The notes below the pieces were generated by a model. The model saw nothing but the letters and a program-made list of their open reading frames with translations. It was not told the origin of the DNA and did not search any database. From Alphaproteobacteria bacterium (GTDB lineage: Bacteria > Pseudomonadota > Alphaproteobacteria > MPNO01 > UBA830): DNA of 64,000 nt. The stretch is from the NCBI GenBank assembly GCA_964291215.2, contig OZ219790.1, positions 928,001 to 992,000 of the forward strand, read 5' to 3'. Position 1 is the stretch's first letter, and every line of letters starts with the position of its first letter. Below are positions 33,761-64,000 of this stretch, piece by piece. The position numbers and the translations under genes are program-made.

Positions 33761-34211
33761 GTGCCCGCGCGGAAATGACCGTTTTGGCTGAGATTCCGGC
33801 AAAATTTCTGGTTTGATCGCCCTTCCGGGTCCCGCTCCGTTTTCGGGGGGATTTCTGCTGATTCGCAGCGGTATCAGGGCTCTTCCAGCCGAGAAGCCGG
33901 ACGAGCGGCTCCGTTCCCGCTCCCGGCGGGTTTCGCGGGTGGGGTAGGGACGCCGCCGTCAGGCGGCGCGTTTTCGTCGTCGTCGGGCCCGTCTGTGCAA
34001 CAGCAGGCGGTGGACATTGAAGACGACCATGGACAGCGCCACCATCCGCGCAAAGCCGTCCGCCCCACAGGACCCGGTCCATGCCGCGTTGCTCAAGATT
34101 GTTGATCGCCGACTCCACGGCCGGATGCTGTCGGCGCATCTCCCGGAACGTCGGGTCAGCTTCCCGTTCCCGGTCCGCCCGACCAGGCTTTCCCTTCTTC
34201 GGTAGCGCGTT
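33761..34211 (-). mobile_element. ISNCY (ISDol1-like) right-end fragment
   Basis: Near-identical reverse complement of about 62272-62713, terminus GTGCCCGCGCGGAAAT. Confidence 0.85.
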
Positions 34212-34227
34212 GTGATCCCTTGTGATC

Positions 34228-35734
34228 GGGTGAGACTCTCGTATGGCACGGTTGCAGGCTCAGTACCACTTGTTCATCTCATGCGGCCAGTGCCGGGGTG
34301 TGATTTGGGCTGATGTTGTCGTTGGCCGGTGCGTCGTCTGCACCAATCATGGCCGTCCACGCGCTCTCGAAGCGGCCGGATTCGAGCAGGGCGCGGAAGG
34401 CGATTGTCCGCCGACGATGAGCCAGCGCATGCCGGAGCGTTTCATGCGCTGTGTGACAAGGGTCTTGTTTGCCGCCTCGACAATTCCCGAGCCGGTTGCT
34501 TCAGCGCGTGGTAGCGCATGCGGTGGCGATGCTTGCGAAAGAAGGACAGTTCCCTGTCGATGTCGGCCCGTTGGCGCCGCAGTGTCGCGAAGGTGGCGCA
34601 GCGCCCGGATCACCCTGTCGATGCCGCGGGGGTCGTGACGCAGGATCTCGCGGTACTTCTCGAACCAGTGGGGCACCGCTGCATGGTCGGCCGCCACGCG
34701 CAGATGCTCGCAGGCATACCTCGGTTTCGGGCTCAAGACCCCCGAGGAAGGTCCAGTTGTCGGCGGCGGCGTCGGCGATGGCGCTGATCTCGGGACGTCT
34801 CCGTTTGATATGCGCGACTTCGCTTGCGAGCTGCGCCTTCAGTGTGCACTTTCGGCCCTCGGGCATGCGGCCGAGACAGACGGTCTTCAGGCGCTCACCG
34901 TCGGCGTCGTGGAAGGAGACCGTGCCGCAGGCCGCCTCACGCCAGCAGGCCTCGGAACGGCCGTCCTCGCCGGCCCGCAGCGCCACCATGACGCCGTCCA
35001 GCGAGGCGGTGACCGCGTCCTGCGGGATGTCCTCCGCTTCCCGGATGTCATCCAGGGGGGCCGAGACTTTCCCGGCGCTCCTGCATGGTCAGGCGCTGCA
35101 AGGTGCTGGCGTCATGGCGCCGAGCTTGCCGAACAACGCCTCCGCTGCCGCCCATCATCATCAGCCCAAGCCGCCGGCCGTGTCAGCTAGTCGTCGACGA
35201 GGCTTTCGTCCACCGGCATCAGCGACCGGCAGCGCGCGCCGGTGCGGCACGCCGAAAGGTCACCGGGCGAGGTCATCATCGTCTTCGGCGCCCCATCTCT
35301 GCCCGTCCCGCTCGATCCGGAGCGCACCGTCGTCCCGGGCCTCGGCACCCGGGATCTCGCAGCGCGTACACGCTCTCACGCACCCGCCGCTCCGTTTCCT
35401 CAAAGGCCTCGGCAGAGCGCTGCGAACCGAGTTGCCGATGACAAACCGCGGTTATCTGCGTGACCGCCTCGACAACCCGAGGCGGCAAGCCGGAAATATC
35501 GATCGACGCGGAAGGCTGCGAAACTGACATGCGAGCGCTCCTGATGCTGTGGATTGTCACCAATATCATATCGCATCTTGCGGTGCAGAGCGTTCCCACC
35601 TCTACCGCTCGGCCCGTGACAAAATCCTGTCCTGAAACGGGCGATTGTCACGAAAACCCGTTTTTGCTGCTGCCTCGCGACCACATAACCGCGTTAAATC
35701 AATGGCTTGCATTCGCCATACGAGAACTGCACCC
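34228..35734 (-). mobile_element. Decayed ISKra4/ISLre2-like element
   Basis: IRs GGGTGAGACTCTCGTATGGC / GGGTGCAGTTCTCGTATGGC; fragments WREAACGTVS, ADAAADNW, GSGIVEAANK..RMKRSGMRW in shifting frames. Confidence 0.8.
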
Positions 35735-36474
35735 CGGAGAGGCGGCGGAGATTCGCAACGCCGCCGTGAGCGGCGAGGTCGAGTGCCGCTGCCACGGGCG
35801 CAACTTCATGGTCGCGGAGATGCGGCTGCTGCGCGAACTGACGATCACGGAGCGGACCCCATCGCCCGCGCCTTCTGCCGCCGCCAGCCCCGAAGCTGAT
35901 CACGTCGGACACCAAGCCGCTGCTCGACGCCCCGAAGACCCTCGACGAGCTCCGCCCGCTGATACTACCTCGGATACACGCGCCTGGTCGGCGCGCAGAT
36001 GCGCTACGCGGTCCATGACCGGAACGGCGAGCCGCTGCTCGGCTTCTCGACCGCCGCATGGAGCGCGCGCTGCAACACCCCGCCCGTGCCCTGCAAGACC
36101 TTGGTCGAGGTCCCGCGCCATAGCGTCTGCAGGGCCGCGGGCCGGATCCGCGTCGGAACAACCAGCGGGCGCGGCCGCCACGACCGACATGACAGAAGCC
36201 GAAGAAGGACATCTGGCCCGCTCCGCAAGGACTGGAAGCAGACCCTTAATCGCTGAACCCTGCAACCGGCACAGGATGACGCTCAGCTCCTCCTCCGCAG
36301 CGCCGGGACAAAGCGCAACCAATGCGGAAAACACGGCATGGCGCCAGTGCCCGCCAACCTCACCGCGCATCCCGCCCAGCGGTGCACGAAACCGCTCCGG
36401 ATGACGCTGGAACTCCCTGACAAAAGCCCGTCAAACGGACGAAAACAACAACACCTCACCGCACGAACGAACGC
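35735..36474 (+). mobile_element. Decayed DUF4338 (DruA-like) gene with element terminus
   Basis: YLGYTRLVGAQMRYAVHDRNG, GFSTAAW, GTTSGRGR, PLRKDWKQTLNR, followed by the repeated end. Confidence 0.75.
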
Positions 36475-36477
36475 TCC

Positions 36478-37068: not shown

Positions 37069-37069
37069 A

Positions 37070-38920: not shown

Positions 38921-39024
38921 CACGCTTCCCTGTGACAGGCTCCAGTTGCGCACACTTTGATGCCGAGTGTAGGATTTCCAGAGGCCAAATGCAATGGAGC
39001 GCAGGATCGTTTTCAGGTGTTTCC

Positions 39025-39310
39025 CACGCTGCATTCAATTTTGCTGTCTTCTGCTGTCCGGAGGTTTCACGGCGTGCCGGGTTTTCTGGCTTCGGGGCCG
39101 TCCGCGGTCGTCGCCGGCGGCGTTACCGGCGCGTGGGCGGGCTGTTTTCGGGATGTGGGCGGCGTCCGGGAATCGGCCGGACACCATTGGCGCTCAGGGC
39201 CGGGCTGCGACGGCTTCCCGGCGGTCGAGCCGCCGCCGTGTTTCGGCGAGGTTCTCGCGTCGGTTGGCGAAGATCACCGCGAGCGCGATGTTATCGAAGC
39301 TGGCGCGGTT
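39025..39310 (-). mobile_element. ISAs1-like transposase C-terminal remnant
   Basis: NRASFDNIALAVIFANRR, cut by the IS256 end at 39311. Confidence 0.45.
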
Positions 39311-39828
39311 GATTACGCAACCTGATGTCTGGAAATTGTCGTGAAGCTCTCAGTCATCGAGCTGTTCCCATTCGATCTTGGTTTCGGTTTCCCATTTTTC
39401 GTCGATGAGGACCGCGGTTGAGAGGCGCTCCAACGAGGCGAGGTTCGGAAAGACCCTGACTTTGGAGGTGCGCCGCTTGAGCTCTTGCTGGATCGGTCGC
39501 TCGATGCCGTTCGAGGTTCGCATACGCTTGTGGTGAGCATCGGGCAAGGTGAAGACAGCGAGCCCCGCATTCTTTTCCAGCCAGGAAGCCCGGATGCTTG
39601 TCGCGATAGCTGGCCACGAGGGCGCCCAGTTCAGCCTCGGCGGTTTGGAGTGAGGACGCATGGCTCCGAGCTGTTTTCCAATACGTTTCCTGATGTCGTT
39701 GTTCGGTGCACGGCGTTTTGCGCCAAGTGGAACTGGCAGCGCTGCCACGTCGCCGCGCCCAGCACCGCGCGTCGTGCCGCTTTCAGCCCGGCATCCGAGA
39801 CGATGAAGGTCGTACCATGTAGGGCTAG
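39311..39828 (-). mobile_element. IS256 family 3' fragment (copy A)
   Basis: QRCQFH, RTSNGIER..ELKRRT..VFPN; near-identical to 40181-40692. Confidence 0.88.
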
Positions 39829-40180
39829 GTTGTGGACTCAAATAATTGGTTTGCGATTCTGCGGAGCAAGAATCGGCTGGCAGCCAGTTGCACGGCGGAG
39901 AGGAAGTTCCTTGTCATAACGGGTGGCGACCCGTCGGAACTCCTTGATCTTACCGAAGAACCGCTCGACCAGGTTGCGCATCCTGTAGACCTCGCGGTCG
40001 AGCGGTCGTGGCAATGTCCGGTTGGATTTCATGACCGCGGTTGCTCCTGCTGTCTCGATTAGGTCGAGAATGGCGTCGGTGTCGTAGGCCTTGTCGCCGA
40101 CCACCGTCTCGCCATGCCCGAGGTCGGCGAGAAGCGCCTCCGCCTGCGCGCAGTCGGCCGCCTGGCCCGGGGTCAGGAAC
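39829..40180 (-). mobile_element. IS5 family 3' fragment
   Basis: GDKAYD, RNLVERFFGKIKEFRRVATRYDK; end TGAGTCCACAAC then CTAG. Confidence 0.85.
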
Positions 40181-41410
40181 GATTACGCAACCTGATGTCT
40201 GGAAATTGTCGTGAAGCTGATCGAGCTGTTCCCATTTGATCTTGGTTTCGGTTTTCCATTTTTCGTCGATGAGGACCGCGGTTGAGAGGCGCTCCAACGA
40301 GGCGAGGTTTGGAAAGACCCTGACTTTGGAGGTGCGCCGCTTGAGCTCTTGCTGGATCGGTCGCTCGATGCCGTTCGAGGTTCGCATACGTTTGTGGTGA
40401 GCATCGGGCAAGGTGAAGACAGCGAGCCCCGCATTCTTTTCCAGCCAGGAAGCCTGGATGCTTGTCGCGATAGCTGGCCACGAGGGCGCCCAGTTCAGCC
40501 TCGGCGGTTTGGAGTGAGGAGGCGTGGCTCTGAGCTGTTTTCCAATACGTTTCCTGATGTCGTTGTTCGGTGCACGGCGTTTTGCGCCAAGTGGAACTGG
40601 CAGCGCTGCCATGTCGCCGCGCCCAGCACCGCGCGTCGTGCCGCTTTCAGCCCGGCATCCGAGACGATGAAGGTCGTACCATGCAGGGCTAGCAAGCTTT
40701 CCAGGAAGGCTCTCCAATGGACCTCAGCCTCGGAGAGCGCCACAGAGAGCCCCAGAACGTGCCTGCAGCCCCTATTCCGATGGCCGAGAGCACTGCGACA
40801 TCGCGCACAACGCCGTCATGGCGGGCTTTTTCATAGCGCGCATCCAGGATCAGGTATTTCATCAGGGGCCGGTTGCGCGGCGAGTTCTTCGTCGAGCAAC
40901 CTGGTGGCCCCCTGAGAAGAGGACAGGCTCCCGAACTCGCGCATTACATCCTGCCGCGTGGAAACACCCTTGATGTACATCTCGGCTACGGCGCGAGAAG
41001 ATCGCTGGCCGCGTTCAAGCGACTGGGGGGGGGTCGTCCCCGTGACCGTTTGGCACCTGAACGGTAACAGTGGGGGTGTCGATCCGCTTGTAGCCGTTGG
41101 CCCTGTCGTTCCGGTGTCCGGTGGCCCGCTTTCAAGTGCTGCTCGCGCTCGATTTACATCGCAAGCTCGAAAAGCTGACCAAAGATCCGCCCCAGATCCG
41201 TTGCTCCGTTTGCGATCAGATGTTCCAAAACGGCCTCAATCGTCGTAGTGTGTCGCAGGTCCATTCGCTTCCTCCATGAATGTTTACAGCTCCATGGGAT
41301 AGCACGATGGCACCGCGTTTCACTGGGGGGGGGGGGGGCTAGCCCCCCCCCCCCCCAACGCCTCAAAGCGCAAACCTCAGACAAATTTCCAGACATCAAG
41401 TTACAGTACC
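40181..41410 (-). mobile_element. Decayed full-length IS256 (copy B)
   Basis: IRs GATTACGCAACCTGATGTCTGGAAATT / GGTACTGTAACTTGATGTCTGGAAATT; frameshifted transposase from ATG 41264. Confidence 0.9.
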
Positions 41411-41433
41411 ACCGCAAAAAACACCACCGCACA

Positions 41434-41586
41434 CCAATGCGGAAAACACGGCATCGCGCCAGTGCCAGCCAACCTCACCGCGCATCCCGGCGCACGAAAC
41501 CGCTCCGGATGACGCTGGAACTCCCTGACAAAAGCCCTTCAAACGGACGAAAACAACAACACCTCACTGCACGAACGAACGCTTAC
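41434..41586 (+). repeat. Terminal fragment of the DUF4338 element (copy 3)
   Basis: Matches 36318-36474; ends GAACGAACGCTTAC. Confidence 0.85.
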
Positions 41587-41588
41587 TA

Positions 41589-42709
41589 GTGTTATGTCAG
41601 CAATGATATGTCGTACATTTGGTGCTAGACTGTCCGTCCATTCGGGATGGAGGTCGGAGTATGAAACGCTACGTGGTGACCCTGGACGAACGGGCAGAAC
41701 TTTCGGAGATCAAGGGCTCGCATCTGTCGCAAAAGGTAATCAACGCCCTGCTCAACTGCGACGAGGGCGCGTTCAATGAATGCCAGATGACCGGGAAGGT
41801 CATTGCCGAGATTCTGCGCATCAGCATGCGCAAAGTAGACCGGGTGAAGAAGCGTTTCGAGGGGCTGGAGGCGGCATTGGGTGGCCGGCAAGGACGCCGT
41901 CCTACCTACATGCGAAAAGCCGACGGCACCTTCGAGGCGCGTGGCTCTGAGTTGTGGTGAACCGCCTGAGGGTTACGCGCAATGGTCGTTGCGGCTGCTG
42001 GCCGACCGCGTTGTTGAACTTGGTTACGCCGTGTCACACGAGACGGTGCGGCGTGTTCTAAAAAAACTGCCTCAAGCCATGGCAGCGGGTTGGGTGGGTG
42101 ATTCTTCCTCAAGGGAATGCCGACTTCGCCGCGGCGAAGGTGCTCGATGTCTATCGCCGTCCCGCCGCCTTCCCCGTGGTCTGCATGGACGAAACGCCCC
42201 CCGACCGGCGAGACACGGCAACCGATCGCCATGGCGCCGGGACGGTCAGCACGTAACGACTACGAGTATCGACGTTGCGGCACCTGCAACGTCTTCACGG
42301 AACCCCTGGCCGGCAAGCGCATGACCAAGGTAACCGAGCGCAAGATCGACTGGGCGCAGTTCCTGGCCGACATCGCCGGGCGCTACCAGAATGCTACCAC
42401 CATCACCCTAGTGATGGACAATCTCAACACTCCCCGGCGCCTTCTATGAGGCCTACCCGCCGGACGAGGCCTTGTGGGACCGCTTCGAGTTCGTCTACAC
42501 CCCCAAGCACGGCAGTTGGCTGAACGTGGTCGAACTCAACGTCATGATCCGCCTGAACCGCCGCATCGACTGCATCGAGGTGTTACGCCGGGAAGTTGCC
42601 GCCTGGCAGGCGACCGCATCCAGGCCAAGGTGGATTGGCAGTTCACCACCGACGATGCCCGTGTGAAACTCAAACATTTTTATCCGACATTTTATGAATG
42701 ACAAGACGC
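41589..42709 (+). mobile_element. Decayed IS630 element
   Basis: WSLRLLA, SHETVRRVLKK, VCMDE, VMDNLNT, YTPKHGSWLN; TA within CTAG at both ends. Confidence 0.9.
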
Positions 42710-43143
42710 TAGTTATCAGTAGGACAACCGCTATACACGAAAATCTGCAGCTAACTCGTCTCGCCTCTGAAGCAAACGCCTTGCCTCGTGCATGAACTAC
42801 CAACACTCCGAGCAATACATCTTTGTCCACAACCGACAGACGCGCGAACTGTTCGGAACCTTCTACATGCTAGCGGTTGAAGTATTTGGCGCAACTTGCG
42901 GCGGGCGCTGCCGCTCAAGCGCCGCTCGGGCCAAATTCCGATTGCACGACAGCTCTCATCGCCTGACGGTTCGAGCGGTCAGGAAATCCAGTTGGGGCGC
43001 ACTTTGGCGTGTGGTTTGACACCCGACGCACTTGTCATAACGGCTATGCTGGAGCCCCGTTGACACTTGCACGGGCAATCCTCGCAGCAGGCACAGCGGC
43101 CGTTACACCATAAGGCCGCTCCGGCAGGAAACAAAAGCAGGCT

Positions 43144-43845
43144 TCAGACGCCTAGATACCGGTGCTGGATTTCCTCGTTGTCCCGCAGTTCCCCCGAATC
43201 GCCATCCCAGACGACCCGGCCGCGCTCGACGATAAAGTGCCTATCACCAATTCTGGTCAAGGCGTCGACATTCTTGTCGATGACCAGAATTGACTGGCCA
43301 AGCGCCTTGAGGCCTTCCAGACACTTCCAGATTTCCTCGCGGATCAGCGGCGCCAGCCCTTCGGTCGCCTCGTCCAGAATCAGCAACTTCGGATTAGTCA
43401 TGAGGGCGCGCCCTATCGCCAACATCTGCTGTTCGCCGCCGGAGAGCTGGTTACCCATGTTGTTCAGGCGATTGGCAAGATTGGGAAACAACTCGAGTAT
43501 GCGTTCAAGGGTCCATGGATCGCGCGCGCCCGACCGATTATCCGCGGTCGCAACGAGATTTTCACGCACGGTAAGATTGGGAAACACTTGGCGGCCCTCG
43601 GGGACGATGCCCATCCCCAGCTTGGCAATCTTGTAATCCGCCAGATCGCGGGTCTCCTCGCCTTGGAACAGTACGGATCCGGCATGTGCCCGTACCATCC
43701 CCATGATGGTGCGAATCGTCGTCGTCTTGCCCATGCCGTTGCGGCCCAGCAGGGTCACGACCTCGCCATCGTTGATCGAGAACGACATGCCGAAGAGCAC
43801 CTGGCTCTGGCCATAGGAAGCCTCAAGATCCCGTACCTCAAGCAT
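43144..43845 (-). CDS. livF: Branched-chain amino acid ABC transporter ATPase
   Basis: GRNGMGKTT, LSGGEQQ, LDEATEGLAP. Confidence 0.92.
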   Translation of the reverse strand: MLEVRDLEASYGQSQVLFGMSFSINDGEVVTLLGRNGMGKTTTIRTIMGMVRAHAGSVLFQGEETRDLADYKIAKLGMGIVPEGRQVFPNLTVRENLVATADNRSGARDPWTLERILELFPNLANRLNNMGNQLSGGEQQMLAIGRALMTNPKLLILDEATEGLAPLIREEIWKCLEGLKALGQSILVIDKNVDALTRIGDRHFIVERGRVVWDGDSGELRDNEEIQHRYLGV

Positions 43846-44602
43846 CTGCCGCGACCTTATCCTCGCCCAGATAGGCGGCGCGAACCTCGGCATTGCCGCG
43901 TATTTCGGCAGGCGTGCCCGTTGCGATCGCGCGGCCATATACCAGTACCGTGACCCGGTCTGCAATGCTGAACACGGTATCCATGTCGTGCTCGATGAGG
44001 ACCATCGAATAGCCGCCCTTGATCCCGTTCAGGAACCCGCGCATGCGTTCCGATTCTTCCTGTCCCATTCCCGCAGTCGGCTCGTCGAGCAACAGGAGTT
44101 TGGGTCCGGTCGCCAACGCCATGGCAATCTCCAGCTGGCGTTGCTCGCCGTGGGCGAGATTGCCTGCCAGCACCAGTGCACGGTCGGCGAGCCCGACATC
44201 GGCAAGTATTTTTCGTGCCGGGTCAGTCAGGACTGGATCCGTCGCGGCGTATCTCCAGAACCGGAAACTGTGCCCGGCATGGGCCTGGATCGACAGCGCG
44301 ACATTCTCCAGCGCGGTAAAATCGCGAAACACGCTGGTGACCTGGAATGACCTCGCCAGGCCGACATGGGAGCGCTGCGGCGCGGACAGGTTGTTGATGA
44401 CCCGGCCGTCGAAGACGATCCTGCCGGAGTCCGGTGCCATCATCCCCGACAGCTGCGCAACGAGGGTCGTCTTGCCGGCACCGTTGGGACCGATGACAGC
44501 ATGGATCTCTCCCGGCTCGACGTCGAAGTAAAGGTCTTCGGTCGCCGTGACGCCGCCGAATGCCTTGTTCAGTCCCTCGACCCTGAGGATCGGTTCACTC
44601 AT
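43838..44602 (-). CDS. livG: Branched-chain amino acid ABC transporter ATPase
   Basis: GPNGAGKTT, RSFQ, LDEPTAG, EHDM, AYLG. Confidence 0.92.
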   Translation of the reverse strand: MSEPILRVEGLNKAFGGVTATEDLYFDVEPGEIHAVIGPNGAGKTTLVAQLSGMMAPDSGRIVFDGRVINNLSAPQRSHVGLARSFQVTSVFRDFTALENVALSIQAHAGHSFRFWRYAATDPVLTDPARKILADVGLADRALVLAGNLAHGEQRQLEIAMALATGPKLLLLDEPTAGMGQEESERMRGFLNGIKGGYSMVLIEHDMDTVFSIADRVTVLVYGRAIATGTPAEIRGNAEVRAAYLGEDKVAADA

Positions 44603-45545
44603 TCGAGATGTCCTCCCGCCCCGGCAGCAGGCCCCACAGCCCGCGCTTGGCAAAAAGAACCAGCAGGATCAGGAGCGGTCCGAAATAGAACTGCCAGTGC
44701 TCCGTGAAATCGGAAAGGTATTCCTCGACCATCAGGTAAGCGAATGCGCCGAAAAGCGGACCGAACAGCGTTCCCATGCCGCCGACCATGACCATGATCA
44801 TTAACTCGCCCGACCGGAACCAGTGCATGTATTCGGGGGTGAGAAATTCCGTATAGTTGCCGAGGAGGAAGCCTGCTATGCCGCAGACCACGCCCGCGAT
44901 CGTGAAGGCCGCCAGACGGTACCTGAAGGTCGGGAAGCCGATCGCCTGCATGCGCGCGTCATTGGAACTCGACCCCCGGACCACCATGCCAAACCGCGAG
45001 TTGATGATCTTCCACAGGAGGATCGTGAGCACGGTCAGCGCACCGAGAATCAGGTAGTACATGTTCCAGGATTCGCTCAGATCGAAAAATGAGAAGAACT
45101 CGCTGCGGCTGTCGATCGGCAGCCCGTCATCGCCGCCATACTCCTCGAGGCTGATGCCGAGAAAATAGAACATCTGGGCCAGAGCGAATGTGATCATGAT
45201 GAAGTAGATGCCGGTCGTGCGCAGCGAGATCAGCCCCAAGAGCGCCGCGATCGCCGCGCAGCCAAACATGCAGACGAGAAGCTGAATCCAACCGTTCGTC
45301 ACCTCGTAATAGGCAAGGATGCCGACCGCATAGGTTCCAAGCCCGAGATAGAGCGCGTGGCCGAAACTGATCATCGCGCCGTATCCAAGAATAAAGTCCA
45401 GACTCATCGCCGCAATGGCGAAAATCATCACGCGCGCGATCAGATCGACGTAGAAGGGCTCGTTGATCATCTCCGCAATCGGCGGCAGCAGCGCCAGGAC
45501 CAGAAAGCAGATCAGCAGGAAGGAAAGCTTGAGACGACTGAGCAT
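44595..45545 (-). CDS. livM: Branched-chain amino acid ABC transporter permease
   Basis: SFGHA, YFIMITFALAQ, GGDDG, VGGMGT. Confidence 0.9.
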   Translation of the reverse strand: MLSRLKLSFLLICFLVLALLPPIAEMINEPFYVDLIARVMIFAIAAMSLDFILGYGAMISFGHALYLGLGTYAVGILAYYEVTNGWIQLLVCMFGCAAIAALLGLISLRTTGIYFIMITFALAQMFYFLGISLEEYGGDDGLPIDSRSEFFSFFDLSESWNMYYLILGALTVLTILLWKIINSRFGMVVRGSSSNDARMQAIGFPTFRYRLAAFTIAGVVCGIAGFLLGNYTEFLTPEYMHWFRSGELMIMVMVGGMGTLFGPLFGAFAYLMVEEYLSDFTEHWQFYFGPLLILLVLFAKRGLWGLLPGREDISNE

Positions 45546-45549
45546 GGGG

Positions 45550-46473
45550 TCAACCGGTACGCGCAGGGAACAGCCCCTGCGGCTTGAAGAACAGGATGAT
45601 TGCCATCAGGATGTAGACCAGCATCGACGCGAGAGCCGGGCCGGCTGTCTGCGCCGCTTCCGAGGACACCACCTCGAGCATGAAGACGGGCAGGATCGAG
45701 CGCCCGACGGTCTCGAAAATGCCGACGATCACCGACGCGACCAAGGCGCCCCGGATCGAGCCGATGCCGCCAATGACGATGACGACAAAAGCGAAGATCA
45801 GCATTTCCTCACCCATGCCGCTTTCCACCGAAATAAGCGGCGCCGCCATCAGGCCGGCAAGGCCCGCAAAGACGGCGCCGAGTCCGAAGACGACGGTGTA
45901 GAGGAAACGGATGTTGATGCCGAGCGCGCCCACCATCGAACGGTTGCTGGCTCCGGCGCGTATGAGCATGCCTAGCCGGGTGCGGGTAATCATCCAGTAA
46001 AGGGCCCCGGCCACGACGATGCCAACGCCAATGACAATGAGACGGTAGACCGGATAGGGGGCGTCTGGCAGGATCTCGACATTGCCGCTGAGCCAGGCCG
46101 GCAGCGTCAACGGCAGCGCCTCGACACCCCAGACCAAGCGCACGAGTTCATTAAAGAAGAGGATGAGCCCGAACGTCGCCAGCACCTGATCCATGTGGTC
46201 GCGCTCATACATGGTTCTGAGCACCACGAGTTCAATGATGATGCCGACAAGGAGCAGCACCGGCACCATCAGCACGAGTGCCACCAGCAGACTTCCCGTC
46301 CAGCCGAAGAACGTCGACGCGAAATAGGCGCCAACCATGTAGAGTGAGCCGTGGGCGAGATTCACCACGTTCATGATCCCGAGGACCAGCGTGAGGCCGG
46401 CGGAAATCAGGAACAGGAACACACCGAACTGGATCCCGTTCAGAAATTGCTCAACGACCAACAGGAAACTCAT
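45550..46473 (-). CDS. livH: Branched-chain amino acid ABC transporter permease
   Basis: GLTLVLGIMNVVNLAHG, TRLGMLIRA, IGGIGS, KPQGLF. Confidence 0.9.
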   Translation of the reverse strand: MSFLLVVEQFLNGIQFGVFLFLISAGLTLVLGIMNVVNLAHGSLYMVGAYFASTFFGWTGSLLVALVLMVPVLLLVGIIIELVVLRTMYERDHMDQVLATFGLILFFNELVRLVWGVEALPLTLPAWLSGNVEILPDAPYPVYRLIVIGVGIVVAGALYWMITRTRLGMLIRAGASNRSMVGALGINIRFLYTVVFGLGAVFAGLAGLMAAPLISVESGMGEEMLIFAFVVIVIGGIGSIRGALVASVIVGIFETVGRSILPVFMLEVVSSEAAQTAGPALASMLVYILMAIILFFKPQGLFPARTG

Positions 46474-46551
46474 CTACGTCACCACGATTGTGTCAGGCGA
46501 AAGGGTTGGGGCTGGCGAAGGATGCGAGACAGGCAGGAAGCCTGACAGGCA

Positions 46552-46579
46552 CGGGGAGAATCCCGGAGGATTCTCCCCG
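46552..46579 (-). terminator. Intercistronic stem-loop after the binding-protein gene
   Basis: CGGGGAGAATCC-CGGA-GGATTCTCCCCG perfect 12-bp stem. Confidence 0.7.
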
Positions 46580-46602
46580 CAACGCAGTGTTGGCGCAGCA
46601 GC

Positions 46603-47784: not shown

Positions 47785-47940
47785 GATATTTGTCCCAGAA
47801 GTTTGTACGGTGTACGGGAAATCCCATGGAAACGTACTACAAGTCCGGCTACCATGCAAAATCGTTGCGTTGCCGTTCCGCACACCCGATCCTCGCAGCC
47901 GACAACGGACGCCCGGTCGATCAAAAGGAAACATGCCGGA

Positions 47941-48429: not shown

Positions 48430-48451
48430 CAGGCCGCCGGCGGCGGACGGG

Positions 48452-50682: not shown

Positions 50683-50706
50683 GCGCCGACGCGGGGCCGC
50701 GCCGGC

Positions 50707-51348
50707 TCAGGCGGCGCGGCTCACGTCCGGACGGGCGTCAACGGCGTCATACCACCGCGTGACGTTCGGGCAGTCATCGGTGACGGCAAGCCGTCGCGAG
50801 GTCCCGAAGGCGATCGCGCAATAGGCGGTGATGTCGGCGAACGAGAAGCGATCGCCGACGATGAATTCGCGACCTTCGAGTTGGGTGTCCAGCTTGGAGA
50901 AGAAAAGCCCGAGCCGAAACTGGCCGCGTTCGGCGAGTTCCGGTATCTGCGGGACTTCGTTCGCGTATCCGGCCACGCCACGGCCGGCAAAGGCCTTGTG
51001 GGTGTTGCGGAAATACTCGGACACTGCCATCAGACCCTCCCATTCGGCCACGCGGTCCCACATCTCGATCTGAGCGGCTTCCTTGGCGTCGCGGCCCATG
51101 AGCGGGTTGTTCGGGTAGCAAGCCTCGAGGTACCGACAGATCGCCGGCGCTTCTGCGATCCAGTCGCCGTCATCGAGTTCCAGAAGCGGCACCCGGCGAT
51201 GTGGAAACCGGTGGCAAAAATCGGGGCTGAGCCGCGACGGATTCTCCGAGTCGCCCGCGTTGACGATCTCGATGTCGATTCCCTTCTCGGCCACGAAAAT
51301 CGTTGCGCGCCTGGGATTGGGGGCCATCGGCCAGTTATAGAGCTTCAT
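50707..51348 (-). CDS. Glutathione S-transferase
   Basis: APNPRR, VPLLELDDG, AICRYLE, FSFADI. Confidence 0.9.
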   Translation of the reverse strand: MKLYNWPMAPNPRRATIFVAEKGIDIEIVNAGDSENPSRLSPDFCHRFPHRRVPLLELDDGDWIAEAPAICRYLEACYPNNPLMGRDAKEAAQIEMWDRVAEWEGLMAVSEYFRNTHKAFAGRGVAGYANEVPQIPELAERGQFRLGLFFSKLDTQLEGREFIVGDRFSFADITAYCAIAFGTSRRLAVTDDCPNVTRWYDAVDARPDVSRAA

Positions 51349-52357
51349 CGGCGGTCTCCGCTTGTATCAGCCTGTTGAGCAGGGTTCGCGCCTGGATCAC
51401 CGGCGCATCGGCATTGACGTCGATGCGCCGAGACGGCAGCGCTGCCTCCCGCGAGGCCTGCAGCGCCTCGACGATCTCGACATCCTCGGCGAATATGCGG
51501 GAAAATTCTGCCTTGCGGGCGACCGCAGCATCCTCGTCCGCGGGGGCACCGCCAACCGACCAGAAATAGTGGCAGCTGCCTGCCGTCTCCGGCGTCATGA
51601 AGTGCATCGTGTGCAGGGTCATGCCGCGGGACCGGTCACCCTTCTCCGCCCCGGTTCCCGCGAGCGCGCATCCGATGTCGAAAGCGCAGAGAGACGGCGG
51701 ACTGAAGTCCCAGATCAGCCAGCGGTCGACATTGTCGCGGGTGCCGAGCGCCCGGGCAAAGGTCGGTGACGGAATGACATCCATCATCCAGCGTTCAGCC
51801 CTGACGCCCCCCGCCGTGCGCCGCACCTTGGGCGGCGTGTCGGTAATCGCGCTTGAGCCCAGCGTATCAGGATGAACGAACGGCGCGTGGGTGTTGTCGA
51901 GTTGGATGTCGATGAGCAGTTCATAGGCGCATTCGACGTGCCGGTACTGCTCGACCACGGCCCATTCCGGATTCTCGCGCCAGGTCAAGTCGGGGATCAG
52001 ACCGGTATCGGCGCGGCCCGGATCTCCCATCCAGATCCAAAGCCAGCCATGACGCTCGGTCAAAGGATAGCTGTGGACGCGCGCGCCGCGCGGAACGCGG
52101 GTCTGGCCGGGTACCCGCACGCAGGTGCCGGCGGAATCAAATTCGAGACCGTGATAGCCGCATTGCAGCCGCTCCCCGGTCACCTGCCCGAGCGACAGCG
52201 GTAAGCCCCGATGGCAGCAGCGATCGGCGAGCGCGGCCACAGTTCCCCACCCATCACGGAACAGTACCACGGGTTCGCCGAGAAAGGTCCGTCCCAAGGG
52301 CGCGGCCCCGACCTCCGATGGCTGCGCCGCGATGTACCAAGTGTTACGAAGATACAT
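51335..52357 (-). CDS. Rieske oxygenase alpha subunit (VanA-like demethylase family)
   Basis: LRNTWY, CCHRGLPLS, CGYHG, DNTHAPFVH, FAED. Confidence 0.88.
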   Translation of the reverse strand: MYLRNTWYIAAQPSEVGAAPLGRTFLGEPVVLFRDGWGTVAALADRCCHRGLPLSLGQVTGERLQCGYHGLEFDSAGTCVRVPGQTRVPRGARVHSYPLTERHGWLWIWMGDPGRADTGLIPDLTWRENPEWAVVEQYRHVECAYELLIDIQLDNTHAPFVHPDTLGSSAITDTPPKVRRTAGGVRAERWMMDVIPSPTFARALGTRDNVDRWLIWDFSPPSLCAFDIGCALAGTGAEKGDRSRGMTLHTMHFMTPETAGSCHYFWSVGGAPADEDAAVARKAEFSRIFAEDVEIVEALQASREAALPSRRIDVNADAPVIQARTLLNRLIQAETADEAL

Positions 52358-52699: not shown

Positions 52700-53612
52700 G
52701 TGACCGTTGGGCTGGGGATTGGCCGAACGGGAGTACGGCCGCAGCACGCACCCGGACGACAGGATCAGGCGCCGGATCGCGCAGATGGGCGCGGCCTGGA
52801 CCCGGCGTCTCGGCGAGCACCTACCGGCGATCTTCCCGGGGCACACAGAACAGGTGGCGACCTACCGGTTGCTGTCCAACGAGGCGGTGAGGATGGAGTA
52901 CATACTGGATTCGCATGTCGAGCAGACGGTGGAGCGGTGCCGCGCCGAGCGGCTAGTGCTGGCCGTGCAAGACACGACCACGCTGAACTACGACGGCCTG
53001 TCGGGGACATCGGGCCTCGACGACCTCGCCGGTGGCGGCAAGGGCACCTCGGGCATCCTGGCCCATGTCGGCATGGCGGTGAACGCGGTCGGACGGCCGC
53101 TCGGGATGTTCGATGCGGACGCGGACTTCTGCCAGGCTGAGGGCAAGGACAGTGTCCGCTGGATCGCCGGTCTCGACCGGGCGCAGGAACTTGCGCGCGC
53201 CTGTCCGCATACCCGCGTCGTGACGGTCTGCGACCGGGAAGGCGACTTCCGGGAGATGAACTCGCGGGCCGAGGAGACCGGGGCGTCACTGCTGATCCGG
53301 GCGAGCCAGGGAACGCAGCGCCGGGTGGCGCTGCCTTCGGGCGACGACGCAGACCTCTGGGACCACGTGCTGGAAACGGACCCCGTCGGAAGGCGCCGGA
53401 TCGTGGTTCCCGCCTGCGGCGGCCGAACCGCAGGAAGGGCCGCAAGGCGAAGCTGACGCTGCGCTGCGCGCCCGTGGACCTGCTTGCCCCGAAAGACCGG
53501 GCGGGCGAGGGGCCGATTCGCGTGATCGCGGTCTCTGCTCTCGAGGAAAACCCGCCCCGTCGCGGCGGGAAAGAAGGGCGAGCCGCTGCACTGGATGTTG
53601 CTGACCACCGAG
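52700..53612 (+). mobile_element. IS4 family (Tn5-like) transposase fragment
   Basis: YRLLSN, VLAVQDTTTLNY, VCDREGD, HWMLLTT; truncated by an IS256 end. Confidence 0.85.
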
Positions 53613-53621
53613 GGGGGGGGG

Positions 53622-53689
53622 GGTACTGTAACTTGATGTCTGGAAATTTGTCTGAGGTTTGCGCTTTGAGGCGTTTCACTGGGGGGCTA
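53622..53689 (+). mobile_element. IS256 left-end fragment
   Basis: GGTACTGTAACTTGATGTCTGGAAATTTG equals the reverse complement of the 41410 end; cut at CTAG. Confidence 0.85.
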
Positions 53690-54901
53690 GTAGTCCACCG
53701 GCATTGTATTGATGGTTTTTTGTGGGTAGTATTTTCGTGTCGGCGTTCGTTGGAATCTGGACAGTGCCGATATCCACACGGGCAAGATGCCGAACAGGCA
53801 GGCAGCCCCATGCGCAGGTCCGGACAACGGGCATGCCCGCAGGTCTTCGGCGCAATGACAGGAGCAGCGCATATGGCCAACTCTCGGGGCAGGAAGCTCT
53901 ACCGGGTGACCCTTTCAGCGCAGGAGCGCCGGGATCTGAAGGCGATTGTCGACGGCACCGGGGCTGCCTGGCGCCGGACACAAATCCTGATGCTGAGGGG
54001 GCGCTTGTCGATGCCGACATTGCGCAAGGGCTGGGCATCGGCACGGCGACGGTCGAGCGCTTGCGCAAGCGCTGCGTCCTGGAGAAGCTGGACGCCGCCC
54101 TCAGCCGCAAGGAGCAGGTGAACCGCCGGCCAAAACGGGGGCGATGGAGGCGAAGCTGGTCTCGTCCCCGCCCGAGGGCTGTGGACGCTGAAGCTGCTCG
54201 CCGGCCGTCTGGTGGAGATCGTCGAGCGCATTTCGGAAGAGACGGTCAGGAAGACGCTAAAAAAAGAGATCAAGCCGTGGCTGAACTGGTGCATTCCACC
54301 GCACCGGAGCGCACAGTTCGTGGCGGCGGACGTGCTTGACATTTGTCAGCGGGACTTTGCCAGGGACGAGGTGCTGAGACCAGCCGGCAGCAGACGAAGG
54401 ACCCCCCCCCCCCGTCCTCCGGTCAGCCGGAGGTGGTCGACTATGAATATGAGCGCAACGGCACGGCCAACCTCTTCATGGCCTTTGCGCCCAACGAGAA
54501 CTGGCGCACGGTGAAAGTCACCGACCGCCGCGGGACTGGGCGCACTTCATCCGGGAGCTTGCCGACGACCATTTCCCCGACAAGAAGATCGTGCTGGACA
54601 ATCTGAACACGCACAGTCACTGTATGAAGCCTTCGAGCCCGAGGAGGCGGGTACGAAAGCGGTTCGAGTTTCGCTATACGCCAAAGCATGGAAGCTGGCT
54701 CAACATGGCCGAGATCGGTGCGCTGTCGTGGCAATGCCTTCGGCGACGCATTCCCGACCGCGACACCATGCTGCGGGAGACCGTGGCGTGGGTGGAACGG
54801 CGCAATGCGGCCGATGTCACTGTCGACTGGCGTTTCACGACGAAGGATGCCCGGACGAAACTGAAGTCTCTATATCCGTCAATCCAATAATGCCAGACTA
54901 C
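53690..54901 (+). mobile_element. Decayed IS630 element (different from 41589)
   Basis: WTLKLLA, SEETVRKTLKK, DYEYERNGTANLF, LDNLNTH, YTPKHGSWLNMAE; CTAG at both ends. Confidence 0.9.
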
Positions 54902-56412
54902 TAGTTGGGTTCTGATTGGTCGTAGTGCTCGTTGATGATGTCTGCGGCTTTTCCGTCGAGGGCGATCTGGGTGGCGACGAGTGGGTTGTAGCCGAGTGCG
55001 GCCATGGAGGTGAGGTAGCTTGAGCCCCGGCACCATGCTTTTGCGTGGAGCGGAAGCATCCGGACACCTTGACCTTTGCCATCCTGATCTTCTGTTCTCC
55101 GGCATTGTTGGTGAATCTGACGTCGGGGTCGTCTGTGAAGCGCAGGTTTTCGTGTTTCACGAGACGTTCGTGCAGGTTGTGCGCGTCGGACTTGCGTCCA
55201 CGTTTTCCTTTCGGCGGCGGCGGGATGTCGGGCAGTTCCCTGGCGCCCTGATGGTGCGGTAGCGCTTGCGCCCGGCGTCGTTCAGGGTTTTGGATGCGCT
55301 CTTGTTGACCTTGTGGCAGACCTCGCGGAGCAGGCTCTTCATCAGTCGCGCGGTAGCCTCGACGACAAAGGTCAGTTCGCGCAGCAGGTGGCTGCCACAC
55401 AGCTGGTGGCTACACTGGCCCATGTACGAGGCCCAGGACGTCCTTGTAGCACGGGCCGATCTCTTGCCCGCGCTTGCGGTGCGGGAACTTGCACGTCAGG
55501 GTCCCACGACATGAAACCACTTGCTGTTGATCCGAAATCATCGACATCGGGCGTTGCAGGAGGTACGCCACGGCGGCCTCCTCCCATGACGCATCGTGAA
55601 AGCATAGCTGAGGCAGGTTGCCTCGGAGAGCTTGATGCCGGAGATCGCCTGCACGAGCGCGACGGCACGGCGCAGGGACAGCATCTGGGCGACCAGCAGG
55701 TTGATGACGAGAGCCTGGATGCCGATGCCGTACTGCACGGGATGTTGTCGGGGAACCGGCCCTTGGTCCGGGCCTTGCACTTCGGACATTCCTTGATCTC
55801 GGCGCGGCGCTCGACGACCTCGAACACGATGTCGTGCGGCGCTCCCGATCGATGGGGCCGTCGATGTCGGTGCCGCAGGCGTCGCAGGCCGCGACCGTCT
55901 CCTCGACGATGATCTTGCGCAGGTTGTCGCCCATCTGCCGGTTCGGCTTCGGGCCGTTGCTCCCGGCACGCTCTTGTCCGTCTGTGACGGCGGCAGACCG
56001 GAGTTCCGGCTCGTGCGTGGTCTTCTCCAGAAGGACGACGATGATGATGTCGAGTAGGATGACGAGGACGCGGATGACGGCCTCTTCCGCCACTTTGCCG
56101 GCCGCACGCAGCGCCACGATCTTGGCCGCTTCGAACTCCTCGCGCGCCGCCCGTCGCCATCACCCGGCCTTGCGCTTCATCAGCGCGCCGCTTCCGAGAT
56201 GCGTTTCCACATACAGATCATGCGGGGGCTGGAGCCCCGAAAGCAGCTGGCACAGCCCGCTCGTCGCCTTCGATCCAAAGTAGCCCACTGGCGGTCCCCG
56301 TCGTTCTCGATGACCACCACTAAACGAATCGGCCTGCAGTGTCAAATCTCCACGAAAACCCGTTCGTTGCTCTACCCCGACATCAAGCTGGAACCAGGGG
56401 GTGAGCAGTTAC
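54902..56412 (-). mobile_element. Decayed IS66-family element (copy 1) with adenine-methylase passenger fragment
   Basis: End GTAACTGCTCACCCC; CGSHLLREL, FTNNAGEQKIRMAKVKVSGCFR; GYFGSK..YVETHLGSGA. Confidence 0.85.
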
Positions 56413-59656: not shown

Positions 59657-59675
59657 AGGCTCGATGGGACCTTCT

Positions 59676-59690: not shown

Positions 59691-60204
59691 GATCAAGGAG
59701 GCGATCTGTGATGAGCCGAGCCCCAACGCATTCGGATTTCGCGTCTCTGAATTAGTGCCTGCGAAAAAAACATAAAATCGCTTGATTTTTTTGTAGAATC
59801 CTGATATAGAGGGGATGAAGAATCTCGCTTTGGGGTAGGAATTGGACGATCAGACCGGAAATCCACCGGATTTTCGGAAAACTTCGCGAGAATTGCCATG
59901 CGAAACGTTCCGCAGCTGGAATTGGGCCAGGTTGCGATCGAGAAGATCGATCTCAGCAAAGACTCGCGGGATGACATGCGCGGGATTCAGCACGTGTATG
60001 CCGACCCGGCTGTTCAAGATCCTGGAGGAGGGGACCCTTCCGAGAGTGTCCCACAGGAAAGCGCGTCCCGGCGTTGTGGAAGATTCTGGTGTCCTGAAGC
60101 AGAGCTTGGGGTATGACCTTATATGACTAGGTTTTGTCCCCTTGATGATGAAATCATCCACAGCAGTTGGGGGCGGGAAAATGTGGATCTGTGGGAGAGC
60201 TATG

Positions 60205-60392
60205 GTTGCAGAGAGATTCCGCTCCCCTGAGCGAACACGCACAGGGGAGCGGGGATCAAACGATCTCCGCGGAGGTTGCCGTTTTGACCTTGACAGAGCC
60301 GCGACCGAGTGTGGTCGGCCAACCTCCCTTGACGTCCCTCGCTGGATGCTTGGGTTTGAACCCGTATCATCGTAAGGCGAGGAGCAAGGGAC
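60205..60392 (+). ncRNA. IS110 bridge RNA
   Basis: 5' hairpin plus two internal-loop stems whose guides match the target (TGACCT / CGAG) and donor (TGGATGCT / TAAG); boundaries approximate. Confidence 0.85.
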
Positions 60393-61146
60393 GATGGTCA
60401 AGATAGTAGCAGGGGTCAGCAAGGCCAGTCTGGACATCTGGCGCATTGTTTTGCGAACGACGCCACGGGCAGGTGGCTTCGCGGCCTCGGGGTGAGCCGG
60501 GTGGTGGGCGACAGGCCGCTATCACCGCAAGGTTCACCAGTGTCTTCATGACCGGGGCTTCGAGGTTATTCTCGTCAACCCGTTGCGGGCGCTTCGCCGA
60601 GGCGATGGGCCATCTGGCCAAAACCGACCGCGTCAACGCCAAGATCGGCTGGGCGATCTTGAGCCTGTGGCTCCGCCTTCCTCAAGAGCCTGGAGGATCT
60701 CTTGGTGCCGCGCTTGTCGACGCCAAGCAGGTGGCAGATGAGGTGGATGGCGAGACCGTCACAAGGGCCTCGGCGGCCGATCTCAATGATCGCATTGCCG
60801 GCGCGGCGATCAAAGCGGTGATCGCCGGTGATCCCGAGCAGAGGTACGCCATCCTGACCTCGATCCCCGGTCCGGTGACCGCCGCGGCCCTTCTGGATGC
60901 CCGAACTCGGCAGCGTCGGCAGCCTTGATCGGGGTGGCGCCGATGGCCAACGACCACGGTGCTCGGCACATCCGTGGCGGGCGCCGAAGGCCACGCGATC
61001 TCCTGGCCGCAACCGGCACGCTTCAACGCGAACCTGGTGCGCCTCAAGACTGCCGGCAAGGCCCACAAGGTCGCGATTGTCGCCGTGATGCGCAAGCTCT
61101 GGCGAACACCCTGCTGCGACAGCAGCGTTGCCTGAAGCACCGGTGA

Positions 61147-61353
61147 GTGAGCGAAGGAGACACGGCCCTCACCCCTGCCGAGAGCGCGATCGGGACTGTC
61201 TCGACAGTCTCCCTCTACGACACGACTTGGGGAGAATGTCTGCAGATCATCGTCGAGGCCGACATCGAGGAGACCGAACCGCCTTGGGACACCTGGAACC
61301 CAATTGACGACGGTCACGTGCCCGGGGACGGCAAGGTAGCCGCGTTCACGTGA
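61147..61353 (+). CDS. Small acidic ORF inside the IS110 right end
   Basis: 68-aa open frame starting right after the recombinase remnant; no motif recognised. Confidence 0.3.
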   Translation: MSEGDTALTPAESAIGTVSTVSLYDTTWGECLQIIVEADIEETEPPWDTWNPIDDGHVPGDGKVAAFT

Positions 61354-62727
61354 CCAATGGACGGCAACCCGCCGCCGGGACCACAAGCTTCATGTCGCCT
61401 CGCTCGCAGAGCAAACCCCACACCGCTTGTGGACAACCACAGAAAACATCACCGCAGACACCCGCAAAAACCTTGCCAAGAAACATGGATGCTCGATCAT
61501 CTGCACGAACTGGTGAACGAGACGGTTCGCAAGTTCCTGGACCACGGCGATATCCGGGACAACACGAGGTACAGCTATCGGACGGTGCTGGAGAACGTGA
61601 GCCATCTGACGCCGGAAGTGCTGGAGAAGGTATCGCAGCTGGTGGCTGAGAGCGGCCATGCGATGGTCCGCAAGAGCAAGTCGGACGGGTCCTTTGCGGG
61701 GCCGCTGCGATTCGTTCGTGGTGCACTACCCGACGGACGTCAACCTGCTGTGGGATGCGATGCGTTGTCTGGTGCGCGGCCGTGTTCGCGGGGGTGGCGG
61801 CAGTGGCAGCATCGGAGTCGCGGGAAGCGCTTTCAGAAGGTTTCCGGCGGGCCTCTTCGGAGGATGGTACCTCGACGACAGCCGGGAGTTGGAGCGCAGG
61901 AGACGGTTTCGGCACTTGTGGAGAAGGGCGTCGGGGCCTCCAGGATTCACAAGATCCAATCGTATCTCAACCATGCCCGCCGGCAGATCGACCAAGTAGA
62001 CCGCCGCCTAAGGCGAGAAGATCCCGCAGGAAGAGAGGGTGTTTTCGATCTTCGAGGAGCGCTGGTGCGTGAAGGGCAAGTGCCGGTGGCCGTGCTGGAG
62101 GACCAGCACGGCTTCCTCCTGCACCACCGGATCCTGTGGGAGGGCAGTGACGTGGACCATGCGGTGCCCATGATCCAGGAAGCACAGGCTCGCTTCCCCG
62201 ATCTGCGCCTGTGCAGTTTCGATCGCGGGTTCCACAACCCCTCCAACCGGATTGCACTGGACGAGTTGCTGGACGCGCTGCCGAAGAAGGGAAAGCCTGG
62301 TCGGGCGGACCGGGAAGCTGAGACGACGTTCCGGGAGATGCGCCGACAGCATCCGGCCGTGGAGTCGGCGATCAATAATCTTGAGCAACGCGGCATGGAC
62401 CGGGTCCTGTGGGGCGGACGGCTTTGCGCGGATGGTGGCGCTGTCCATGGTGGCCTTCAATGTCCACCGCCTGCTGTTGCACGGACGGGCCCGACGACGA
62501 CGAAAACGCGCCGCCTGACGGCGGCGTCCCTCCACCCCACCCACCCGCCGGGAGCGGGAACGGAGCCGCTCGTCCGGCTTCTCGGCTGGAAGAGCCCTGA
62601 TACCGTCGCGAATCAGCAGGAATCCCCCCGAAAACGGAGCGGGACCCGGAAGGGCGATCAAACCAGAAATTTCGCCGGAATCTCAGCTAAAACGGTCATT
62701 TCCGCGCGGGCACGAATTACCAAAATA

Positions 62728-64000
62728 GTATCTACTCACCCCTTGTTGGGTTCTGATTGGCCATAGTGCTCGTTGATGATGTCTGCGGCTTTTCCGTCGA
62801 AGGCGATCTGGGTGGCGACGAGTGGGTTGTAGCCGAGTGCGGCCATGGAGGTGAGGTAGCTTGAGCCCCGGCACCATGCTTTTGCGTGGAGCGGAAGCAT
62901 CCGGACACCTTGACCTTTGCCATCCTGATCTTCTGTTCTCCGGCATTGTTGGTGAAGCTGACGTCGGGGTCGTCTGTGAAGCGCAGGTTTTCGTGTTTCA
63001 CGAGACGTTCGTGCAGGTTGTGCGCGTCGGACTTGCGTCCACGTTTTCCTTTCGGCGGCGGCGGGATGTCGGGCAGTTCCCTGGCGCCCTGATGGTGCGG
63101 TAGCGCTTGCGCCCGGCGTCGTTCAGGGTCTTGGATGCGCTCTTGTTGACCTTGTGGCAGACCTCGCGGAGCAGGCTCTTCATCAGTCGCGCGGTAGCCT
63201 CGACGACAAAGGTCAGTTCGCGCAGCAGGTGGCTGCCGCACAGCTGGTGGCTACACTGGCCCATGTACGAGGCCCAGGACGCCCTTGTAGCACGGGCCGA
63301 TCTCTTGCCCGCGCTTGCGGTGCGGGAACTTGCACGTCAGGGTCCCACGACATGGAGCCACTTGCTGTTGATCCGAAATCGTCGACATCGGGCGTTGCAG
63401 GAGGTGCGCCACGGCGGCCTCCTCCCATGACGCATCGTGAAAGCATAGCTGAGGCAGGTTGCCTCGGAGAGCTTGATGCCGGAGATCGCCTGCACGAGCG
63501 CGACGGCACGGCGCAGGGACAGCATCTGGGCGACCAGCAGGTTGATGACGAGGGCCTGGATGCCGTACTGCACGGGATGTTGTCGGGGAACCGGCCCCGG
63601 GCCTTGCACTTCGGGCATTCCTCGGCGCGGCGCTCGACGACCTCGAACACGATGTCGTGCGGCGCTCCCGATCGACGACGCCGTCGATGTCGGCGCCGCA
63701 GGCGTCGCAGGCCGCGACCGTCTCCTCGACGATGATCTTGCGCAGGTTGTCGCCCATCTGCTGGTTCGGCTTCGGGCCGTTGCTCCCGGCACGCTCTTGT
63801 CCGTCTGTGACGGCGGCAGACCGGAGTTCCGGCTCGTGCGTGGTCTTCTCCAGAAGGACGACGATGAGGATGTCGAGCAGGGTGACGAGGACGCGGATGA
63901 CGGCCTCTTCCGCCACCTTGCCGGCAGCGCCGCGGTCTTGGCCGCTTCGAACTCCTCGCGCGCCGCCCGTCGCCATCACCCGGCCTTGCGCTTCATCAGC
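62728..64000 (-). mobile_element. Decayed IS66-family element (copy 2, runs off the window)
   Basis: End GTATCTACTCACCCC; near-identical to 54904-56183. Confidence 0.88.

Follow-up and report, generated by a model that had tools for sequence, protein, structure and literature searches.

Size-locked deletions of 5–7 bases erode repeated elements of an alphaproteobacterial genome and are likely spread between copies by short-patch gene conversion

Analysis of a 64,000-nucleotide stretch of an alphaproteobacterial genome (the window; G000:C1:928001-992000) revealed, from position 33761 onward, two nests of dead insertion sequence (IS) elements (IS256, IS630, IS66, IS4/IS5-type, and unclassified) around a block of single-copy host genes. 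The dead copies have lost many segments of 5–7 bp, and comparison of copies within the genome and with its relatives suggests that a one-way, very-short-patch form of gene conversion likely carried these size-locked deletions from copy to paired copy, through a putative nuclease and ligase. The genome (6.15 Mb, 64% G+C, two contigs) encodes a RecA with alphaproteobacterial relatives (best 89% identity). A second copy exists for about 36% of its bases, and 88 repeat families were delimited.

Five genomes of one genus were used, with G000 under study and G001–G004 for comparison. The sister species G001 (92% identity) was represented by about 1.1 Mb of sequence in nearly repeat-free stretches, and aligns to the window over host stretches only. 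A second species, G002 (∼79% identity), was sampled as 30 stretches of 20 kb, and G003 lacked power because only three repeat pairs were obtained from it. For the indel census of G000, near-full copies were aligned for 20 of the 88 families, five redundant families were dropped, and indels were kept if flanked by 12 identical bases on each side, which yielded 566 distinct indels. Contigs X1–X3, from public runs of one study (four runs, library type unrecorded), were presumably built from reads independently of the polishing of G000. Those of X1 are identical to the unique DNA of the window, and X1 may be the assembled sample itself. X3 is a different strain, with 12 single-nucleotide polymorphisms (SNPs), two 1-bp gaps, and no gap of 5–7 bp in 2,007 bases of the single-copy stretch at 37039-39043, which lies inside an IS nest and has no Pfam match.

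The original prediction, made from the letters of the window alone, had described dead elements eroded by microhomology deletions and G/C-run expansion beside clean host genes. The four allele pairs and three G/C runs that it quoted were all found in place, and both alleles of each pair recur genome-wide (CCTTGATCTC in 97 copies versus CCTC in 26, for example). The gaps between sister copies are real deletions, because IS66 with its gaps filled from sister copies aligns over 482 amino acids of the intact G001 transposase (PF03050, E = 6.7e-42) with neither a stop nor missing bases. The IS66 element had no DNA match among the plasmids searched and one weak metagenome match. The host genes proved nearly clean, with host stretches of the window 83–92% identical to G001, indels mostly between genes, and two window genes classed as broken; the block between the nests aligns to G001 at 91.7% identity with seven indels, none of 5–7 bp.

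The deletions have a narrow size range. Among the 566 indels, those of 1–4 bp number 72, 18, 8, and 6 (104 together), those of 5–7 bp number 89, 196, and 115 (400 together), and those of 8 bp only 17, with a small further peak at 12 bp. The same class makes up 95 of 105 indels in G002, where one repeat pair carries eight deletions and no substitution over 2,279 bp; the G002 pattern is a younger form of that in G000. Repeats of G004 show no such peak, with seven gaps of 5–7 bp in 43.9 kb containing 2,835 mismatches. Gaps of 5–7 bp are also found in tandem arrays of ∼1.6-kb paralogues in four G002 stretches (L163, L169, L177, and L180), which, to judge by a motif, look like putative AAA-ATPase/nuclease genes and not IS elements.

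Each family carries roughly 30 fixed sites, mostly near fixation, as displayed for two families, whose undeleted survivors are scattered over different copies. Polarity follows from the intact transposase. Across 13 families, 133 of 247 deletion alleles have reached a frequency of at least 0.8. Diversity among deleted copies is lowered within 10 bp of the deletion (0.026 versus 0.039) and barely lowered at 11–60 bp (0.032–0.035 versus 0.035–0.040). At matched frequency and within 10 bp, all four gametes were observed in 34 of 65 deletion-SNP pairs versus 25 of 180 SNP-SNP pairs, and the excess is also seen without frequency matching. The copies do exchange sequence, since linkage between SNPs decays with distance, 45% of SNP pairs at 11–30 bp showing four gametes. 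Size variants at one site are few, the 485 sites giving 19 pairs where chance predicts 36, and this argues for a single origin per site followed by copying. Moreover, one G002 copy (L164) carries the union of the deletions of two others (L161 and L163). These data favour transfer between copies, with deterministic recurrent cutting the less likely reading.

Deletion density rises with copy number. In repeats 3–6% diverged, gaps per kb were 0.4, 1.5, 2.1, 4.9, 6.4, 8.6, and 9.6 from two-copy to >100-copy classes, an increase of about 20-fold based on up to 150 sampled, non-independent pairs per class. Broken single-copy genes (43 cores, 36.9 kb) contain eight deletions of 5–7 bp, or 0.22 per kb, and six of the 43 have a 5-bp deletion; an IS66 copy has ∼35 events per 1.45 kb, as estimated from alignment to the G001 homologue, so that the density in broken single-copy genes is ∼100-fold lower than in repeats. 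The cores of 636 intact genes (528 kb) contain 13 in-frame 6-bp deletions relative to G001. These results support the earlier proposal of a repeat-directed process analogous to repeat-induced point mutation (RIP) in fungi.

Single-copy DNA is not entirely free of such losses. Over 907 kb of aligned single-copy sequence, G000 lacks 65 segments of 5–7 bp and G001 lacks 6, and in 57.5 kb of non-coding DNA from the first 40 stretches the numbers are 29 and 4. Microhomology of at least 3 bp is present in 37 of the 65, and the T motif described below is lacking (8 of 23, 10.6 expected). These deletions are a separate, much sparser, lineage-specific class that looks like slippage, as judged by its richness in microhomology and its lack of the T motif. 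With regard to the proposed genome-wide regime, the lineage does show a mild excess of microhomology-rich 5–8-bp deletions, a class different from, and much sparser than, that in the repeats.

Microhomology, which the original prediction made part of the description, is enriched in the repeats but not required. Of the 400 G000 events of 5–7 bp, 96 have none (207 expected by chance) and 105 have at least 3 bp (∼27 expected), whereas the five-base deletions of G002 are at chance level (28 of 43 with none). The class is defined instead by size and sequence. Among 69 low-microhomology events in G002, T occupies the second deleted position (+1) in 63 (27.9 expected), the deleted piece begins with AT in 44 (5.3 expected), and 57 combine T at +1 with a purine as the last deleted base (14.7 expected). 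The repeats of G000 have T at +1 in 132 of 205 events (94.5 expected). The motif is present on both strands with opposite strand skews in G000 and G002, and an RNA template or transcription-strand origin was rejected on these grounds; nor was any RNA listed that could carry such a template. A mismatch trigger was likewise rejected, there being no extra diversity within deleted segments (0.040 versus 0.039).

Loss of mismatch repair, which had been suggested as a cause, found no support, given open reading frames for mutS and mutL that score above the family cut-off and retain their catalytic motifs (FYEM and DQHAAHE), and given the rarity of 1–4-bp indels; a single conservative change in MutS/MutL is common to G000 and G002. 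End joining by Ku/LigD fared no better, as Ku and ATP-dependent ligase were each found in none of the five genomes, with positive controls matched. With mismatch repair intact and Ku not found, both ideas are unsupported. The earlier interpretation is supported in part, through its repeat dependence, and the earlier observations are confirmed in part, through the deletions, allele pairs, runs, and nearly clean host genes. A search of G000 with 48 Escherichia coli proteins gave open-frame matches for the main replication, recombination, and repair genes, recA being intact; rayT, family-1 ung, priC, rdgC, and sbcD had no match, and matches to sbcC, topB, ligB, dinG, and xni were weak or to paralogues.

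Searches for candidate enzymes in G000 gave no match for endonuclease V, topoisomerase IB, RecT, or UvdE. NucS was absent from G000, with two weak matches in G002 only, and Vsr was absent from G000, with eight matches in G002 (L244 and L246–L249) and one in G004. No match was found in G000 to Piwi or, in a search without a positive control, to pPIWI-RE, and divergent Argonautes could have been missed; the search for endonuclease VII, also without a positive control, gave no G000 match. Two CRISPR arrays lie at C1 574173-581198 and C2 2068487-2069553 (97 and 17 repeats), and self-targeting was rejected because, of the 112 spacers, none matches another part of the genome over its full length. 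Reverse transcriptases were set aside as non-discriminating, being present in G000, G001, and G002 alike.

A model consistent with these observations has four steps. Copies would pair through ordinary RecA recombination, and a copy lacking 5–7 bases would make its partner loop them out. MutS is described as binding indels only up to four nucleotides (PMC8235422), a limit that would set the lower edge of the size class. A nuclease preferring N-T loops would then clip the loop and the strand would be sealed on the shorter partner, so that the shorter allele prevails and takes few flanking SNPs along. More copies would mean more donors, and large families would thus be shredded and single-copy DNA spared. 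In the last and weakest step, this activity would also create most of the new deletions, with the rest coming from slippage between short direct repeats; its share would be nearly all in G002 and, by the microhomology mix, perhaps 60% in G000. A more specific version, which we regard as possible but would not bet on, is a dedicated homology-triggered anti-transposon system in G000 and G002, in which a nuclease-ligase would recognize paired repeats, cut one base before T, remove 5–7 bases, and propagate the scar to all copies, a counterpart of RIP that writes deletions.

Among other explanations, each copy might have been cut on its own, always at the same fixed positions, by a nuclease that is guided or resembles a transposase and leaves a 5–7-base staggered break, with ends trimmed and joined and no copying. 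The sharp size and the N-T...purine motif resemble a cut geometry, microhomology in the five-base deletions of G002 does not exceed chance, a few sites have 6- and 7-base alleles with one edge in common, and some sites recur in the divergent IS66 subfamily described below. We nevertheless consider this unlikely: one allele dominates nearly every site, the dip in diversity close to deleted alleles is a mark of co-conversion, the motif is too loose to select only ∼30 sites per element, and neither the Piwi, Ku, and ligase searches nor the CRISPR spacers offer a suitable enzyme or guide. It is less probable still that transposition multiplied non-autonomous copies in which the deletions were already present, with ordinary, unbiased gene conversion shuffling them afterwards. 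Many deletions are indeed common to most copies, SNP pairs also recombine, and in a few families some members may be less damaged (open frames of up to 521–577 codons). Amplification is, however, largely refuted by the nearly full SNP diversity of deleted copies past 10 bp; in addition, undeleted survivors are scattered and do not form one old lineage, deletions are less linked to their neighbours than SNPs are, and size and motif are left unexplained.

A mutator that acts throughout the genome by slippage or end joining but shows only in the absence of selection, with intact mismatch repair removing loops of ≤4 nucleotides and leaving those of ≥5, would account for the excess of single-copy losses over G001, their microhomology, and the 5-bp deletions in broken genes. 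It is most improbable, as the density in broken single-copy genes is ∼100-fold too low, the single-copy class lacks the T motif, no effect of copy number is predicted, and eight deletions per zero substitutions would be an unbearable load genome-wide. Finally, an assembly or polishing artefact on repeats, the main caveat of the original prediction, might be suspected from an assembly of two contigs despite 36% repeats, presumably from long reads. It is refuted for practical purposes: contigs of X1–X3, including those of a different strain, show 5–6-base indels relative to the window and between copies, identical junctions occur in dozens of copies, the second species shows both the pattern and the motif, repeats of G004 do not show it, and some repeats are free of gaps.

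Several observations weigh against spread by short-patch conversion or narrow what it explains. The model accounts neither for the upper edge at 7 bp nor for the origin step, and none of 12 candidate enzyme families searched in G000 was found. The standard repair set is normal and does not account for the difference between G000/G002 and G004. The motif is only moderate in G000, and its G002 figures are post hoc, the rule having first been spotted in the same data. The clean two-copy duplicates are intact restriction/BREX-like defence genes under selection, and the curve therefore lacks a neutral control at low copy number; some low-copy repeats are heavily hit, a 1.8-kb pair of group II introns having 20 gaps. 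Recent breaks, G001 errors, or gene-call errors may explain some of the “broken” single-copy genes, and the single-copy controls come from G000. In G002, several IS families have identical, gap-free copies. An IS66 subfamily (four copies, 18% diverged) appears to have deletions in common with the main family in 105 of 147 columns, a figure downgraded since it is partly an alignment artefact and some sites differ in size or position; at least three sites agree in their junction, and at one of these the main family is still polymorphic (61 deleted, 34 not).

Expansion of G/C runs is treated as a separate trait, homopolymer instability. G000 contains 133 G/C runs of at least 9, with A/T runs ending at 10, and G004 has long G/C runs without a deletion peak. 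The long runs noted earlier in dead DNA are real (114 of at least 10), but they are not limited to it: 28 lie in single-copy DNA, seven of them >900 bp from a repeat, although single-copy runs mostly adjoin repeats. In the palindrome with which IS256-family copies end (G6-CTAG-C6 centre), the arms expand independently, up to 17. Growth of G runs in jumps of 5–7 bases was rejected, as the length tail is flat and not bimodal. As a speculation, a nuclease with a preference for T would let T-free loops escape.

The features of the window from 33761 onward are collected in Table 1. Nine distinct 5–7-bp sites are missing in 34240-35600, counted against eight copies. In 59800-61350, where an F5 element interrupts F35, 27 sites are missing. 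Between the nests, a 789-codon open frame at 57059-59428 (minus strand) encodes 11 stretches of RTX calcium-binding repeats, whose units are multi-copy and yet lack only one 5–7-bp site.

Table 1. Elements and control block in the window (positions of the window; F numbers are repeat families)
Position	Strand	Feature	Basis and remarks
33761..34210	none	Unclassified IS-like repeat fragment, F35 (∼18 members)	blastn to family representatives; no Pfam match; contains example pair at 34161
34228..36475	none	Eroded unclassified repeat mosaic (F28, F72, F46, F27/F49)	Contains example at 36371
39014..39310	none	End of repeat family F26	Comparison with family representatives
39311..39828	-	Dead IS256-family copy, 3' part	Transposase_mut E = 1.5e-10; F1, 114 members
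39826..40180	-	DDE_Tnp_1 (IS4/IS5-type) transposase fragment	PF01609 E = 3.7e-10
40181..41410	-	Dead IS256-family copy	Pfam and family comparison; 21 distinct 5–7-bp sites missing in 40300-41500
41325..41356	none	G14-CTAG-C14	Expanded from G6-CTAG-C6, the commonest sister-copy state (116 arms of 6 G)
41426..41586	none	End of repeat F27/F49	Contains deleted allele at 41486
41586..42712	+	Dead IS630-type copy, F9 (52 members)	HTH and DDE_3 matches in separate frames; 13 sites missing
42750..52270	-	Control block: single-copy host genes (branched-chain amino-acid ABC transporter, GST, Rieske oxygenase)	Pfam
52710..53600	+	Low-copy IS4/Tn5-like transposase remnant	Tnp_DNA_bind E = 3e-4; related multi-copy elements in G002 and G004
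53612..53623	+	G12 run at element junction	X1 and X2 contigs match without difference, only ∼25 letters past the run
53687..54904	+	Dead IS630 copy, F3 (79 members), C12 at 54402	DDE_3 E = 1.6e-8; 19 sites missing
54901..56412	-	Dead IS66 copy 1, F0 (194 members)	Relative to intact G001 IS66, 54880-56260 lacks 205 nt in 22 blocks; examples at 55718 and 55791
59802..62713	none	F35 element interrupted by F5 element (60117-61495, 77 members)	Both eroded and unclassified; no Pfam match; example at 62310
62728..64000	-	Dead IS66 copy 2, cut by window end	Relative to intact G001 IS66, 62800-64000 lacks 230 nt in 24 blocks; examples at 63559 and 63620

Elsewhere in G000, five duplicated and largely intact defence loci (L203, L204, L205, L207, and L215) are almost free of deletions; the defence duplicates comprise a DUF499/DUF1156/SNF2 cluster with GmrSD, MmeI-type enzymes, a type I restriction subunit, and an Mrr-helicase fusion. 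Three tandem tyrosine recombinases (RIT-like) at L206:1376-4934 (C1 ∼452–456 kb) have a second copy differing by one base in 3.65 kb and were thus recently mobile. A two-piece (permuted) transfer-messenger RNA at C1 1957012-1957350 is, we presume, what an alphaproteobacterium should have.

In ascomycete fungi, RIP acts before meiosis, the RID methyltransferase turning C into T; to our knowledge, no bacterial genome defence senses repetition itself. As in RIP, the damage in G000 needs repetition and has killed elements of many unrelated families. It differs in being deletion, in alleles common to copies, and in that no dedicated gene is known, with no search aimed at a RID-like gene and no premeiotic stage in bacteria; nor was RIP-type C:G-to-T:A damage found, C-to-T changes being only ∼2.6-fold over the reverse, an ordinary bias. 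A closer likeness is deletion-biased nonallelic gene conversion, described in Drosophila and primates as one-way transfer of indels between paralogs with the shorter allele favoured ∼3.5:1 (Assis and Kondrashov 2012, PMC3280953), at a rate that the same account places far above mutation, so that neutral paralogs shrink together. One-way indel transfer and preference for the shorter allele are common to both cases; relative to what that account describes, the G000 case is bacterial, locked to 5–7 bp, sequence-preferring, co-converted over ∼10 bp or less, and has removed ∼15% of the element. Two of the three features of such conversion were found here: indels are common to paralogs in a pattern unexplained by descent (four-gamete excess, mosaic matrices, and the G002 union copy), and derived shorter alleles are favoured with flanking diversity kept. 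For the third, transfer as opposed to independent recurrence, the single allele per site and the local dip in diversity lean towards transfer.

Bacterial pseudogenes are reported to have small deletions outnumbering insertions, microhomology in 171 of 396, no Ku, and indel sizes following a power law, with 3n sizes mildly over-represented (PMC6054270). By that description, only the sparse single-copy class resembles them, the G000 repeats being dominated by 5, 6, and 7 bp with 2–4 bp scarce. Natural transformation, in which heteroduplex integration is described as importing deletions more easily than insertions and as able to cure mobile DNA (PMC3375284, PMC13663708), involves, as set out there, kilobase tracts with SNPs and no size lock; ComEC was found in none of the five genomes of the genus G000–G004, as compared with 10 of 14 controls. 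No precedent for erosion of bacterial repeats by 5–7 bp was found in the literature searched, which included few subscription papers and no supplements.

If correct, short-patch conversion of these deletions would be an undescribed bacterial way to wreck repeated mobile DNA. IS families would be killed where they stand, in step with their copy number, which would offer an answer to how IS expansions end without deletion of elements or reshuffling of the chromosome, and a two-copy reporter makes that question testable. A new repair activity would also be implied, namely an enzyme able to copy a short deletion, but not its flanking SNPs, past intact mismatch repair. Should there be no dedicated gene, the erosion of these repeats would still be an unusually clear example of deletion-biased conversion in bacteria.

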